Of a DNA stretch of 33,060 nt, positions 1 to 18,118 are shown piece after piece. A program made the position numbers and the translations under genes. The first letter of the stretch is position 1; every line of letters begins with the position of its first letter. The DNA is from a bacterium (GTDB taxonomy: Bacteria > Zhuqueibacterota > Zhuqueibacteria > Oceanimicrobiales > Oceanimicrobiaceae): positions 1 to 33,060 of the forward strand of contig JBHHXN010000048.1 of NCBI GenBank assembly GCA_046757025.1, given 5' to 3'. The notes under the pieces are model-generated. The model made no database searches, had not been told where the DNA came from, and saw only the letters and a program-made list of their open reading frames with translations.

Positions 1-732
<732 letters not shown>

Positions 733-794
733 TGTTGTTTGTTTCCAAAAATAATTAAATCTCAATGGACGACAGAGCCATGCACACTCTTATT

Positions 795-865
795 TGCCAA
801 AGAACCAAAAAAATTGCCCAAACCACATTCGGAATGGGCAACAGCCAATATAATTGTTAAAGAAC
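795..865 (-). promoter_or_regulatory. two boxA-like antitermination sites in the rrn leader
   Basis: GTTCTTTAACA (865-855) and GTTCTTTGGCAA (~805-794) resemble boxA (TGCTCTTTAACA). A TTGCCC..GGGCAA hairpin lies between them (~814-841). Confidence 0.55.
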
Positions 866-875
866 TAAAAGTCAA
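847..875 (-). promoter_or_regulatory. rrn P2-like sigma70 promoter
   Basis: TTGACT (875-870), 17 bp spacer, TATATT (852-847) on the minus strand upstream of 16S. Confidence 0.6.
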
Positions 876-935
876 GTATTTTTTTATATTAGTGCTGTTT
901 TTTTATGCTGCATTTTTTCAAATTTTGCAGAGTGT

Positions 936-963
936 AATATAAACATTTCTCAATTAATGTCAA
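936..963 (-). promoter_or_regulatory. rrn P1-like sigma70 promoter
   Basis: TTGACA (963-958), 16 bp spacer, TATATT (941-936). AT-rich upstream tract; a 16-bp spacer is typical of rrn P1. Confidence 0.65.
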
Positions 964-1148
964 GAGAAAAATAATATATTTTTGAAAAAATCACGAGTGA
1001 TAATTACGTGTGGTTTACAAAGCACACTTTCAGTGATATTACACTCTCATGAGCAGTTGTATATTAAATCAAGATGTATGTTTAACAAGGTCTTCACTCA
1101 TTTCTGCAAGTTTTCTTATACAATTTTACCTATTTCACTGCAATGAAA

Positions 1149-2387
1149 CTAAGAATCTTTCAAAAGCAAGCGATGATAACGCTTTTTACCTGCGCGCAAG
1201 GTAATGACCCCGTTTTCACAATTGCTCTCGTTTAAAATGGCATCGACACTTTCAATTCTCTGATGGTTTACATACGCCCCGCCTTGTTTAATCAACCTTC
1301 GCGCTTCACTTTTTGAAGCCGCCAATCCTGTTTCAGCAAGGATATCCACCAGTAACTTCCCTGTCTTTAAATGAGCCAAACTAATATCAGAAGACGGCAC
1401 GGCGCTGGCATCGTCATTGAACTGCCCAAAAAGGCTTTGCGATGCTTTTCGCGCTTTCTCGGCCTCTTGCAAACCATGGCTAATTTTCGTAGCCTCAAAG
1501 GCTAACCTTGCTTTTGCGACATTCTTTTCTGCGCCCTTTAAACTACTTAATTCCTCAATCTCCGGCATTGGCAGAAAAGTGTAGTACGCTAAAAATCGTT
1601 TGACGTCGCGATCATCTACATTCATCCAAAATTGATAGTATTCATAAGGAGTCGTTTTGGTGGCATCTAACCAGACGGCCCCAGAAGCCGTCTTTCCCAT
1701 TTTTTGTCCGCCAGCGGTTGTTATCAATGGCCAGGTGATACCTTCCGCTTTTGCTGCTTCTACCCGTCGAATCAAGTCAGTTCCCGCAATGATATTTCCC
1801 CATTGATCATCACCTCCGAGCTGAATAGTACAGCCGAATCTCTTGTACAGCTCTAAAAAATCATAAGCTTGCAAAATTTGATAATTAAATTCTAAAAAAG
1901 ACAAACCCGATTCCAGGCGTATTTTGTACGATTCGGCTGTCAACATTCTATTGACACTGAAATGCCGCCCAATACTGCGCAGGACATCGATGTATTTCAA
2001 CTCAAGTAACCAGGTGGCATTGTGTACGGCCAATCCCTGCTTACCATCAATTTGAAAATAACGCGCGATTTGGGATTTAATTTTTTCTGCATTTTTACTG
2101 ATCGCCTCGAAAGAAAGCAATTTACGCATTTCTGTCTTGCCGCTGGGATCGCCAATCATCGCGGTTCCGTCGCCAATGATGGCTATGGGGCGATGGCCAC
2201 ATCGCTGCAGATGAGCAAGCGCCATTAAACCTAATAAGTTGCCTACGTGCAAGCTGTCGGCGGTGGGATCAAATCCCACATACGCGGTCACTCGCCCTTT
2301 CGTAAATGATTCACGTACGTTTTGTTCGTCAGTGACTTGTTTAATAAAACCCCGTTCATTCAGAATATCAAAAGCATTATTTTCCAA
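1149..2387 (-). CDS. tyrS: tyrosine--tRNA ligase
   Basis: YVGFDPTADSLHVGN (HIGH), QLGGDDQWGNI, KMGKT (KMSKS), C-terminal S4 domain (SKSEARRLIKQGG). TTG start with AGGA upstream. Confidence 0.97.
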   Translation of the reverse strand: MENNAFDILNERGFIKQVTDEQNVRESFTKGRVTAYVGFDPTADSLHVGNLLGLMALAHLQRCGHRPIAIIGDGTAMIGDPSGKTEMRKLLSFEAISKNAEKIKSQIARYFQIDGKQGLAVHNATWLLELKYIDVLRSIGRHFSVNRMLTAESYKIRLESGLSFLEFNYQILQAYDFLELYKRFGCTIQLGGDDQWGNIIAGTDLIRRVEAAKAEGITWPLITTAGGQKMGKTASGAVWLDATKTTPYEYYQFWMNVDDRDVKRFLAYYTFLPMPEIEELSSLKGAEKNVAKARLAFEATKISHGLQEAEKARKASQSLFGQFNDDASAVPSSDISLAHLKTGKLLVDILAETGLAASKSEARRLIKQGGAYVNHQRIESVDAILNESNCENGVITLRAGKKRYHRLLLKDS

Positions 2388-2569
2388 TATACTAATCCTA
2401 TATTTGATTATTCCATGTTTCTATTAATTTACTTGTGTAAACTGATCTCAAATTTATGATGTTTCTGGTTGATTACTGTAGAGTTAATGAAATACCCAAC
2501 GACAATCGACTGGATTTGACGTATCCATTTATTTGTAAACTGGCAGTGCGAATCCTTTTTCAGTTCATA

Positions 2570-3028
2570 TCAATGGCGCTGCTTTTGTTTGAGTACTTTC
2601 CTTAATTCGCGGTCCGATTCCCTTTTTGCAATATCCTTACGCTTATCGTAAATCTTTTTACCTTTTGCCAACGCCAATTCTACCTTGACGTGGCCATATT
2701 TGAAATAAAGTTTTAATGGAACCAGTGTCAGTCCTTTCTCCTGTACTTTCCCGATCAACTTTTTAATTTCATTTTTATGTAACAACAGTTTTCTTGGCCG
2801 CAATGGATCGTGGTTATTGATGTTTCCGTGCGAATAGGGACTGATGTGCGCATTGAACAGGAATATCTCACCATTTTTTATGTTTGCATAGCTGTCCTTT
2901 AAATTCGCACGTCCGGCTCGCAGTGATTTAACTTCCGTGCCGGTAAGCACGATGCCCGTTTCTAACGTAGATAATATCTGGTATTCATGCCGTGCTTTCC
3001 GATTGGTTGCGATGATTTTTTCACTCAT
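2570..3028 (-). CDS. smpB: SsrA-binding protein
   Basis: [44 protein letters not shown] motifs. Confidence 0.98.
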
Positions 3029-3139: not shown

Positions 3140-3226
3140 GCCGAAGTGGTGAAACTGGCAGACGCGCACGGTTCAGGGCCGTGTGTCCGCAAGGACGTGT
3201 GGGTTCGAATCCCACCTTCGGCACCA
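3140..3226 (+). tRNA. tRNA-Leu(CAG)
   Basis: Acceptor stem GCCGAAG/CTTCGGC, anticodon arm CACGG-TTCAGGG-CCGTG, long variable arm GTCC-GCAA-GGAC, GGTTCGAATCC T-arm, encoded ACCA end. Confidence 0.97.
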
Positions 3227-3260
3227 ATAATCAACATTTTTTCATTTTTGTATTTGAAAA

Positions 3261-3305
3261 AAAAGCGGCAATAAAAAGAATTTCAACTTGTTTATTGCCG
3301 CTTTT
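3261..3305. terminator. bidirectional intrinsic terminator
   Basis: Inverted repeat AAAAGCGGCAATAAAA / TTTTATTGCCGCTTTT between the convergent tRNA and zinc-ribbon gene. Confidence 0.8.
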
Positions 3306-3309
3306 GCGT

Positions 3310-3328
3310 TTTTTGTAACCTACAAAAA
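3310..3328 (-). promoter_or_regulatory. candidate bacterial SECIS element for the zinc-ribbon gene
   Basis: TTTTTGTA-GGT-TACAAAAA perfect 8-bp stem; the loop begins with G 21 nt after the UGA. Confidence 0.6.
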
Positions 3329-3332
3329 TAAA

Positions 3333-3542
3333 TCAGTTCGCTCACGTAAACCCTTTACCGGGCAAACAACCACCCAGGCTCTGACCGGAATCGCTGCCGG
3401 CAGAAGCAAAGGTTGACAAAATTTTTTCTGGGAACGGAGCACCGCATTCAGGACAATTCAAATCCTTCCCGTCGGCGCCGATTTTCTGCAACACGTCGAA
3501 TTGAAATTCACAATTCTTACATCGATATTCATAAATTGGCAT
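3333..3542 (-). CDS. FmdB-family zinc-ribbon protein, candidate selenoprotein (UGA at 3344-3342 read as Sec; otherwise ends at 3342)
   Basis: MPIYEYRCKNC...CPECG zinc ribbon; ATG at 3542 with GGAG SD. C-terminus CLPGKGFT-UGA-Ala-Asn-UGA followed by a SECIS-like hairpin. The family call is solid; Sec readthrough is inference. Confidence 0.85.
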
Positions 3543-3557
3543 CCGGTTCTCCAAATG

Positions 3558-3719
3558 TTAATTTAACTTTGCTGTTTTATTCTCTTTTTTTTTGATTTCA
3601 CATTTCTCCGAAATGTCATTTGGATTTGTCATTCAAGTGTGGATCCCCAATCTGGGTAATACAAATTTTATCACAAAAAAATAACCAGCGAAAATCAAAA
3701 TAACCTCTAATGTCTCCAT
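3558..3719 (-). CDS. small single-TM membrane protein, candidate selenoprotein, 53 aa (METLEVILIFAGYFFVIKFVLPRLGIHT-U-MTNPNDISEKCEIKKKENKTAKLN)
   Basis: AAGGAG SD just upstream of ATG 3719; hydrophobic N-terminal helix; in-frame TGA at 3635-3633; the frame stays open to TAA 3560-3558, 15 nt before the next ATG. Not in the ORF track. Confidence 0.7.
3600..3616 (-). promoter_or_regulatory. candidate bacterial SECIS element for the small membrane protein
   Basis: ACATTTC-GGA-GAAATGT perfect 7-bp stem; the loop begins with G 23 nt after the UGA. Confidence 0.62.
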
Positions 3720-4077
3720 TACGACTCCTTTTTTTGACTTGTGATTAACAAGTTACGAATTCAAAAATCACACAAATGTCTTCGATTCATCAACATGATT
3801 TTTCCTGATAATGAATGAAAACAAACCCGACGATTACAATATGAAAAACTGCGCATTTATTCCTGGACAAATCATCTCATACACAAATAAACTATTTCAT
3901 TTTAAAATTAGATACAAAAGCCGTAGAAAAGATACCATTTTCTATTGTCTTTTTCAATCTCAATTTGAAATTGTGCTTGATTATTGATTACTGAAATCTT
4001 AATTTAATCATACCAAAAATCCTGACAATTGAAGACAAAAGGATTATTCAAAAAGCTAATGAAAAAAGGAGAAACCC

Positions 4078-16114: not shown

Positions 16115-18118
16115 TCAACGAATTAATATCATCTTCCGAGTTGTCACGAAATGCTCGGTTTCGATTTTATAAAAATACAAACCACTGGCTGCCTGCGAGT
16201 TTTGATCGGTTAATCCATCCCAGATTACGAAATGCTTGCCGGCGCCCAATTGCGCATGGGTCAGGGCTCTGATTTCCTGGCCGCGGGTATTCAATATTTT
16301 AACGGTCACCCCGGCAGTTTCAGCCAGTTCAAAATGGATTCGCGTGGAGGCATTAAATGGATTGGGGAAATTCTGAAACAAGACTAAAGCAGCCGGTGCT
16401 TTCAAATTAGTACGAATCACCTGAGAATATCTAAACGCGCCATCGAAATCCAATTGTTTGAGGCGGTAAAAATAAACTCCTGAAGCCAGATGTTTATCAA
16501 CAAAGGTGTAATGCTGAGGACTCGTGGTGGTGCCCGCGCCTTTTACAAAGGCCACTTTTCGGAATTCGGTAGCAGATGTTTTTCTCTGCACTTCAAAGCC
16601 ATAATTATGGGTTTCCGTAGCGGTGCTCCACAACAACATGACGCGATTCTCATTCATAACCTGAGCACGAAACGAGGTCAGCTCCACTGGCACGAACAGA
16701 TCGGAAGACACCAGATCGCCCCAGGTACAGGGCACGGTATCTTCTGCGCCGGTGGGCCAGCGGTCATCGCCGGCGCCGGTATTCGCATCCCAGAATGAAA
16801 TACCCAGGGTGTCGGACGAGCCGGGAGCCACGCCTAATTTGGTGTACGCAATGCGAAATTCGGCCTGCCAGTTTTTAGCGCCCACACTGCTTGCCGAAAT
16901 CCAGCCGCTGGGGGAATTTGCGCTCCAGCCGGCGCCCGATCCCTGATCTTCCTGCATCTGGCCATTTATGGCGCGGGTGAGTCGGTAATCGTCGGTTTGA
17001 GGGGTGCTGCCGCCATCGTGGGCGGTGTCCAGGTAAATGCGGGCCGAACTAGAAGCCGATAAATCGGTCATGTTGAAAGCCACATACAAATAGGTGCCAT
17101 CGACTTTGTAGTACACTCTGGTGGTATCCTTATTTTGAATGACCTGTGCGCTGTCGGCGTCGGTGTATTCACCGGCCGCGATGGCGCCGTTGATCGTGGG
17201 CTGCACCGCAAAGGGCGCGTCGGCAATAAAGGACTGGGGTTTGGCTTTGGTCACGGAGGTCCAGTGCTGCCAGGGAATGGCCATATTGGTGTGAGTAGTG
17301 TTCGCCCAATTATCGTGTACGATCACCCATAAACTGTCGGTTTTGCCAGCCGGCTTGAAATTTCGCCAGTAACCCACGCCGGTGACGGCGTGACCGATGC
17401 CGCCGGTACCGGTCTCTTCATTCCAATCCTCCTGAGGCGCTTCGCTATTGTCAGGGGTGGGCGATTGTTGAACAGGCTGCCCCCAAGTATAAATATGAAT
17501 GGTAGCGCCGGTGGTCGGATCGATTTCGGTCTGATTGGCATAAACAGGATTCCAATATAAAAAGGTGATCAGGACCGGTCGGCCAGAATCGATCTCAGCC
17601 GCCTGAAAATCAAATCCGTTTGTATAAACGGTTTGAACGATCCAATCGTAACCCATTTTTCCTACTGGCGGCAAGGAAGGATTGCCGAATTGGTGATCGC
17701 GGTCCCAGCGCACGAACTCAGTTAAGCCGGGTTGAATATCCTGATTGATGGTGCCCTTCACTCCCGTGTTCGCACGACTGGTGCTGCCCAAATCGTTGGT
17801 GTCCATAAACCAGCCGATGGTATCGCTGGCGACATTCGCAGCCCAGCCATTCATGACGCCGTTGGCGCCGGGCTCACAGATGACGTCATCCCAATAGCGG
17901 GTAATGTTTAAAGCCGCTGTGGGGGTGCACCAATTGCTCTGATTCGATTTGGGCGGCTGGTTTTCATCCGGCACATTCGGAATAAAAACTTGCGTAGGCA
18001 GCTGCGCGAAAACGCTTTGCGAGCAGGCGACCGAGAGCGCCATCAAAAAGCGGATTAATACAGAGGAATGCGTTCTTTTCAGTAAGCATTCCGTTAGAAA
18101 GGACTTATTGAGATTCAT
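16115..18118 (-). CDS. secreted multidomain protein: papain/C39-like Cys-protease domain, DOMON/CBM9-like domain, FlgD-Ig/T9SS-type C-terminal domain
   Basis: QSNWCTPTAA (Cys), GHAVTGVGY (His), VHDNW (Asp); PTINGAIAAGEY..YLYVAF..IYLDT..WQAEFRI; VPVELTSF; LFQNFPNPFN...WDG...ASGLYFY..TRKMILIR. GGAGG SD. Confidence 0.75.
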   Translation of the reverse strand: MNLNKSFLTECLLKRTHSSVLIRFLMALSVACSQSVFAQLPTQVFIPNVPDENQPPKSNQSNWCTPTAALNITRYWDDVICEPGANGVMNGWAANVASDTIGWFMDTNDLGSTSRANTGVKGTINQDIQPGLTEFVRWDRDHQFGNPSLPPVGKMGYDWIVQTVYTNGFDFQAAEIDSGRPVLITFLYWNPVYANQTEIDPTTGATIHIYTWGQPVQQSPTPDNSEAPQEDWNEETGTGGIGHAVTGVGYWRNFKPAGKTDSLWVIVHDNWANTTHTNMAIPWQHWTSVTKAKPQSFIADAPFAVQPTINGAIAAGEYTDADSAQVIQNKDTTRVYYKVDGTYLYVAFNMTDLSASSSARIYLDTAHDGGSTPQTDDYRLTRAINGQMQEDQGSGAGWSANSPSGWISASSVGAKNWQAEFRIAYTKLGVAPGSSDTLGISFWDANTGAGDDRWPTGAEDTVPCTWGDLVSSDLFVPVELTSFRAQVMNENRVMLLWSTATETHNYGFEVQRKTSATEFRKVAFVKGAGTTTSPQHYTFVDKHLASGVYFYRLKQLDFDGAFRYSQVIRTNLKAPAALVLFQNFPNPFNASTRIHFELAETAGVTVKILNTRGQEIRALTHAQLGAGKHFVIWDGLTDQNSQAASGLYFYKIETEHFVTTRKMILIR

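Follow-up and report, generated by a model that had tools for sequence, protein, structure and literature searches.

Described selenoprotein systems and layout of the locus

Selenoproteins have been described in the FmdB family of zinc ribbons (TIGR02605), and in the form listed in passages of three surveys, selenocysteine (Sec) replaces the first two zinc ligands to give a UxxU motif (PMC2398784, PMC13188914, PMC9312934). The listed representative of the radical-SAM family TIGR04167 (rSAM_SeCys) harbors its Sec near the C terminus as Cys-x7-Sec-Gly, with GFT before the Sec. Several UGA-recoded genes can share one transcript, as in grdA-grdB, prdB-prdC, frhA-frhD-hdrA, SAO, and Tso, and none of the operons listed in the corresponding section of PMC13188914 consists of a membrane micropeptide and a zinc ribbon. 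Furthermore, a family of small peptides with one hydrophobic helix and the motif LP[KR][LM]G-xx-T-U is already predicted as a selenoprotein among the searched entries of the deep-Sep supplement.

The window analyzed here, a stretch of 33,060 nucleotides, carries two consecutive minus-strand genes with together less than 400 nt of coding sequence and, as the original prediction had it, an in-frame UGA directly after a Thr codon in each. Gene 1 (3558..3719, minus strand), read through its TGA, encodes a membrane peptide of 53 amino acids with one helix (hydropathy peak, 2.14). It starts with ATG at 3719, preceded by a Shine-Dalgarno-like AAGGAG (3725..3730, minus strand), has its TGA at 3635-3633 (codon 29, after ACT), and ends with TAA at 3560-3558. 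The 15-nt gap between this stop and the next ATG indeed holds the Shine-Dalgarno-like site that had been claimed for it (GGAG; 3549..3552, minus strand). Gene 2 (3333..3542, minus strand; ATG at 3542) encodes a zinc ribbon of 69 amino acids that scores 59.8 bits against TIGR02605 (cutoff, 31.3) and has its CxxC...CxxC ligands intact. Two codons, for Ala and Asn, separate its TGA (3342..3344, minus strand; codon 67, after ACG) from a second TGA at 3335-3333, which is the true stop; that gene 2 ends two residues past the UGA goes beyond the original prediction. With Sec predicted at the first TGA, the flexible tail reads Cys59-x7-Sec67-Ala-Asn, in agreement with the soluble zinc ribbon with a C-terminal Cys...Sec tail that had been proposed.

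A terminator-like hairpin with a U tract (3256..3305, minus strand; -20.8 kcal/mol, z = -6.55) likely ends the two-gene transcript; the consensus scan, whose loop limit is 8 nt, did not catch it. The pair's neighbors in the window are housekeeping genes, namely tRNA-Leu, smpB, tyrS, and a gene for a GYD protein, and none of these is a sulfur gene. Downstream of the pair lie tRNA-Leu(CAG) (3140-3226, plus strand), smpB (2570-3028, minus strand), and tyrS (1149-2387, minus strand), and smpB and tyrS likewise lie downstream in four other loci. The window also contains the 5' part of a 16S rRNA gene (1-732, minus strand), cut by the contig end, and a gene for a 667-amino-acid protein with a FlgD-Ig/Por-secretion-type C-terminal domain (16115-18118, minus strand). 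An Rfam scan of the window returned the 16S rRNA and one tRNA, nothing else.

In a comparison by eye, gene 1 agrees with the family predicted in the deep-Sep supplement in the single helix, the LP[KR]xG-xx-T-U motif after it, and the position of the Sec. It differs in having Asn where the entries listed in the supplement have Cys five residues on (+5), a feature drawn from six entries of a family without a formal model or definition. The label of this family is absent from the family table of its own paper, from Table 1 of PMC13188914, and from Pfam and NCBIfam 20.0, and the searched passages of its source state no link to a zinc ribbon. In Pfam and NCBIfam 20.0, searched with 30 members, no model for gene 1 was found; the ESM Atlas holds one unnamed cluster, and the viral contigs and plasmids searched contained no homologue.

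Gene 2 belongs to the same zinc-ribbon family as the listed FmdB selenoproteins, but its four Cys ligands are intact and the predicted Sec lies in the tail, 1 to 3 residues from the end. (The "FmdB" of PMC11227280 is formylmethanofuran dehydrogenase B and unrelated to gene 2.) Table 1 and the operon section of PMC13188914 list neither this tail site nor the pair, and both are likewise missing from the passages searched in PMC9312934, PMC2398784, and PMC5029168 and, by term search, from the deep-Sep and PMC5029168 supplements, from full-text searches, and from NCBIfam 20.0 (subscription papers and bioRxiv supplements lay outside this scope). With gene 1, an obscure predicted family gains a further member, and with gene 2, a known family gains a variant with a new Sec site; the two-gene operon is uncatalogued in the literature and databases searched. 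Since the family of gene 1 was already predicted, novelty is confined to the Sec site of gene 2 and to the pairing. Across many genomes, the pair would extend the known selenoproteins by a new Sec site and a new operon.

Candidate SECIS hairpins and the selenocysteine machinery

Both UGAs are followed by hairpins with GG loops at the distances originally given. Hairpin 1 (3600..3616, minus strand) has a 7-bp Watson-Crick stem and a GGA loop (3609-3607) 23 nt past the UGA. Hairpin 2 (3310..3328, minus strand) lies past the stop codon and has an 8-bp stem and a GGT loop (3320-3318) 21 nt past the UGA; it was ruled out as a terminator because the terminator-like hairpin is a separate structure on its 3' side. 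Both agree with the bacterial SECIS consensus as given in the relevant part of PMC13188914, i.e., a G at loop position 1 or 2 and a loop 16 to 37 nt from the UGA, and both fold weakly in this copy. Compared with shuffled sequences, z-scores were -0.70 for hairpin 1 and -0.31 for hairpin 2, each weak when taken alone, and ViennaRNA opened or shifted the apex of hairpin 2.

The claim that two such matches side by side are unlikely by chance is borne out by counts in the same genome. A strict rule (perfect stem of at least 7 bp, GG-triloop, 13 to 34 nt downstream of the TGA) was satisfied by none of 1421 TGA stops of long open reading frames and by 37 of 221,335 TGA triplets, both UGAs of the pair included. 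Among these 37 are two further sites resembling known selenoprotein types, labeled by motif against the entries of Table 1 in PMC13188914: a UshA-like CxU site in a long frame (G000:C27, near 6348, minus strand) and an AhpD-like CxxU site (G000:C45, near 10758, minus strand), each with a strict GG-triloop hairpin.

Across homologues, hairpin 1 covaries, so that the conserved downstream hairpin expected for this gene is found. All seven stem pairs show compensatory changes, and 90.8% of cells are paired, compared with 33 to 60% for slid partners; none of 500 shuffles reached the observed level. The set comprised 49 of 57 phylum loci, and the result is favored by the removal by eye of the other eight, which have their loop elsewhere. 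Under a loose SECIS rule, 153 of 166 gene 1 loci passed (28 expected from shuffles), as did 62 of 65 gene 2 loci (22.5 expected) and 8 of 16 Cys forms of gene 1 (2.85 expected). Such locus counts overstate the evidence because kin are not independent. Synonymous variation in gene 1 continues through codons +2 to +6 past the UGA and is gone at +8 and +9, which form the hairpin apex. The family shows two SECIS registers, with the loop about 23 nt past the UGA in this phylum and, for the majority of metagenome loci, about 16 to 17 nt past it, with the +5 Cys codon forming the stem there.

The Sec machinery that decoding would need is present: selA, selB, two selD genes, and tRNA-Sec were all found in this genome (94.8% complete). 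One selD, directly behind selB, carries an in-frame TGA itself, with a hairpin (4 bp) that passes the loose rule only (G000:C73). The other lies in a frame of 738 amino acids (239-2452, plus strand, of the excerpt of G000:C344), the N terminus of which, judged by its motif, resembles a NifS-type cysteine desulfurase; the frame is probably a fusion of such an enzyme with SelD. Names carried by database homologues suggest that this phylum is KSB1, and the presence of selABD has been reported for KSB1 genomes in passages of PMC9012183. We found selB in 120 of 167 genomes of the phylum and in 89 of the 100 with gene 1; selA was present in 9 of the remaining 11, so that 98 of the 100 have selB or selA, and the two in which neither was found are 73% and 78% complete. 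Among genomes with a Cys form of gene 1, 3 of 11 carry selB, a count from genomes whose completeness is not established.

Conservation of the two predicted selenocysteine sites

We consider it very probable from the sequence comparisons that both UGAs are decoded as Sec, with SelB reading each hairpin. Of the 167 genomes of this phylum, 100 have a homologue of gene 1, and the site, counted in 185 unique loci, is TGA in 168, Cys in 16, and TAA in 1; 11 of the Cys loci (GTDB) came from a search pattern that demanded Cys. Among the 118 metagenome matches listed, obtained with a pattern that admitted TAA, TAG, TGA, TGG, TGY, or TAY at the site, 114 have TGA, 4 have TGC, and none has TAA or TAG, the codons that would have spoken against the original prediction. 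In a second phylum, gene 1 was found in 56 of 201 sampled genomes, with 29 TGA and 1 TGC in the best 30 loci.

The competing view is that at least one of the UGAs is a plain stop, leaving a 28-amino-acid peptide with a TGA-ATG restart and a 66-amino-acid ribbon with tandem stops. It can draw on the weak local hairpins, on an ATG, CTG, GTG, or TTG right after the gene 1 UGA in 131 of 166 loci, and on database proteins, 74 of 101 of which (gene 1) and 95 of the best 150 of which (gene 2) end at the site. Yet a non-start codon follows the UGA in the other 35 of the 166 loci, the Cys forms run on in frame with the same motif, and the terminator is a hairpin separate from hairpin 2. The single TAA copy (G136) would also suit plain stops, but it has no start codon nearby; the Sec-type ribbon of this selB-positive genome is unlinked and without the tail Cys, still ending TGA-Ala-Ser-TAG. 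Both G136 genes look decayed, the start of gene 1 being lost. Taken with the invariance of the first gene 2 stop described below, we regard plain stops as very improbable and return to decoding as Sec.

The shortened database entries are what had been anticipated, namely that gene callers truncate both proteins at the UGA. Of the 101 database proteins for gene 1, 74 stop short of the site; the remainder show Cys (17), Trp (4), or Arg (2) there or lack the motif (4). The six Trp and Arg residues may reflect read errors, calls under an alternative code, or true substitutions. The expected alignment of Cys with the UGA was thus obtained for gene 1, in these 17 proteins and in the 11 GTDB loci; for gene 2, it was seen in 0 of the best 150 matches. 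The +5 Cys is kept in 150 of 166 TGA loci of gene 1; this copy has Asn34 instead, a point not in the original prediction, and since Cys-bearing close relatives occupy the same locus, Asn34 appears to be a loss in this copy. Of 170 gene 1 loci, 162 have more Lys and Arg behind the helix than ahead of it and the other 8 are ties, and this charge bias suggests that the C-terminal part with its U-x4-C segment would face the cytoplasm.

For gene 2, all 44 read-through ribbon members match TIGR02605, and none of the 44 varies at C8, C11, C30, or C33. A structure model reaches a pLDDT of 83 to 88 over residues 1 to 40 and 51 to 55 beyond; Foldseek searches with it gave nothing at an E value of 0.001 or better and returned generic zinc ribbons only. 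A GenBank homologue is annotated as a zinc-ribbon protein, no more. All 65 linked ribbons (at most 1 kb from gene 1) have the TGA, followed by Gly or Ala in 61 of 65 and by a stop 1 to 3 codons on in 63 of 65. This second stop varies (n = 63; TGA in 26, TAA in 25, TAG in 12), whereas the first TGA is invariant, which argues against plain stops, and the same pattern holds for all 13 linked ribbons found in the second phylum. The second TGA as another Sec codon was ruled out, as TAA or TAG stands there in 37 of 63 homologues and the triplet lies 12 nt from the loop. Among unlinked FmdB paralogues, 3 of 14 end in TGA (a count that omits one Sec-type and one unparsed locus), and neither of the two in this genome does (0/2). 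One linked ribbon (1232-1441, minus strand, of its excerpt) has a Cys-rich tail and a TGA without a short tail after it; a non-Sec paralogue may have taken its place.

F[TSG]-Cys was found at the gene 2 site in none of the best 150 of 21,362 matches, so the Sec call for gene 2 is made without the usual support from Cys pairs; this lack of a Cys form speaks for a plain stop. Of these 150, the 95 shortened proteins end at the residue just before the site, and the Cys-rich tails of FmdB paralogues do not align one to one with the gene 2 tail. Filters based on Cys homology would overlook gene 2.

Gene linkage, neighborhood, and possible function

The conserved gene order sought for the pair exists in at least two phyla. 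A ribbon stands beside gene 1 in 45 of 59 phylum loci and 28 of 115 metagenome loci, many of the latter with short flanks, and lies downstream of gene 1 in 51 loci and upstream in 14. Beside Cys forms of gene 1 it was found in none of 11 GTDB loci; in the genome G114, the genes flanking the Cys form are those found in relatives and the ribbon is absent. In the second phylum, gene 1 occurs without the ribbon in 17 of the top 30 loci. For the "two-component" part of the proposed Sec redox/metal module, gene linkage is the sole basis.

Thioredoxin, DUF6132, DUF2892, DUF302, rhodanese, TauE, and class-V aminotransferase families cluster around persulfide handling. Neighbors that recur beside the pair's relatives are DUF6132 (20 loci), a thioredoxin-like lipoprotein (15), thioredoxin (11), and a glutaredoxin-like protein (8), besides CoA-disulfide reductase-rhodanese, MBL-rhodanese, TauE, and DUF302. 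In the second phylum, where the scan covered 68 of 117 candidate open reading frames, DUF2892/YgaP-like proteins (11 loci), thioredoxin (5), class-V aminotransferases (3), which are likely cysteine desulfurases, DUF302 (3), and ArsR (1) were found. A redox or sulfur neighbor is present in 39 of 59 phylum loci compared with 9 of 115 metagenome loci, many of these with short flanks. A literature search joining DUF2892 or DUF302 with persulfide returned nothing relevant.

Because these neighbor families cluster around persulfide handling, we favor a sulfane-sulfur relay and put the whole reading, in which the two selenoproteins form a selenol-thiol relay that carries sulfane sulfur at the membrane's inner face, at a probability of about 0.5. 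Decoding of both UGAs as Sec would yield a membrane-anchored peptide and a zinc-ribbon protein. Judging from the neighbors, the U-x4-C segment of the peptide and the flexible C-x7-U tail of the ribbon may then accept persulfide sulfur or an oxidizing equivalent, an assignment for which we see roughly even odds, and would hand it on; thioredoxin or the CoA-disulfide reductase-rhodanese enzyme could reset the relay. As the pair stands alone among housekeeping genes here, the functional argument comes wholly from relatives. Against a relay speak the missing +5 Cys of this copy, the housekeeping rather than sulfur genes beside the pair in the window, the low share of metagenome loci with a redox or sulfur neighbor, the 22 loci that have an ECF sigma factor as neighbor in its place, and the frequent occurrence of gene 1 without the ribbon. 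A more tentative picture, to which we give less credit than to the relay as such, is a widespread and so far unannotated two-selenoprotein micro-operon forming a dedicated membrane persulfide relay, in which a novel type of swinging Sec-tipped arm (C-terminal C-x7-U, SECIS past the stop) would exchange sulfur with a U-x4-C anchor, the ribbon being dropped when the anchor reverts to Cys. Through the pair, the uncharacterized FmdB family and an orphan membrane peptide would gain testable redox chemistry; both proteins are small enough to synthesize, and the many natural SECIS variants of gene 2 are under no coding constraint.

The recurrent DUF6132 neighbors have an invariant C-x4-C after their helix that resembles the U/C-x4-C of gene 1; homology of the two was not accepted (profile probability, 10%).

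Read-through of gene 1 ends within -14 to +27 nt of the gene 2 start in 46 of 51 loci, and ECF sigma factors (22 loci) and zf-HC2 anti-sigma factors (12 loci) recur nearby. These observations would suit a regulatory pair, in which translation of gene 2 would be coupled to read-through of gene 1 as a selenium or redox sensor, or in which the peptide would signal to an ECF sigma/anti-sigma pair, and passages of PMC13188914 give FmdB the label "putative regulatory protein." Coupling is at odds with the ribbon lying upstream in 14 of 65 loci and with thioredoxin between the two genes in 5 second-phylum loci; moreover, Cys forms with the same downstream motif occur, and helix and U-x4-C are conserved as protein. 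We therefore judge a regulatory role improbable and prefer the sulfane-sulfur relay.

Both proteins might instead be selenoproteins that bind soft metals or metalloids such as As(III), Cu(I), or Hg(II) and pass them on, with the C-x7-U tail as capture arm and the membrane peptide as docking site. The Cys-x7-Sec spacing of 37 of 65 ribbons recurs in the Cys-x7-Sec-Gly of TIGR04167, the Cys-rich C-terminal tail of ArsL binds As(III) according to passages of its report (10.1101/2024.02.01.577332), FmdB paralogues have Cys-rich tails, and RND exporters and ArsR are among the neighbors. The TIGR04167 protein is unlike gene 2 in being a 300-residue enzyme with a CxxC before the spacer, and the ribbon compared with this genome's TIGR04167 tail gave no significant match (hhalign profile probability, 2.2%; E = 0.021). 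Homology of the tails was not accepted, and the likeness is best treated as an analogy. In addition, the ribbon tail usually offers two ligands, not three, and ars, mer, and cop genes are not recurrent among the neighbors scanned. Metal handling consequently seems unlikely to us, though less so than regulation, and the sulfane-sulfur relay remains the preferred reading. The TIGR04167 radical-SAM gene of this genome (1375-2409, plus strand, of the excerpt of G000:C12) is a Cys form ending CxxC-x7-C and is preceded by a small CxxC-type gene.
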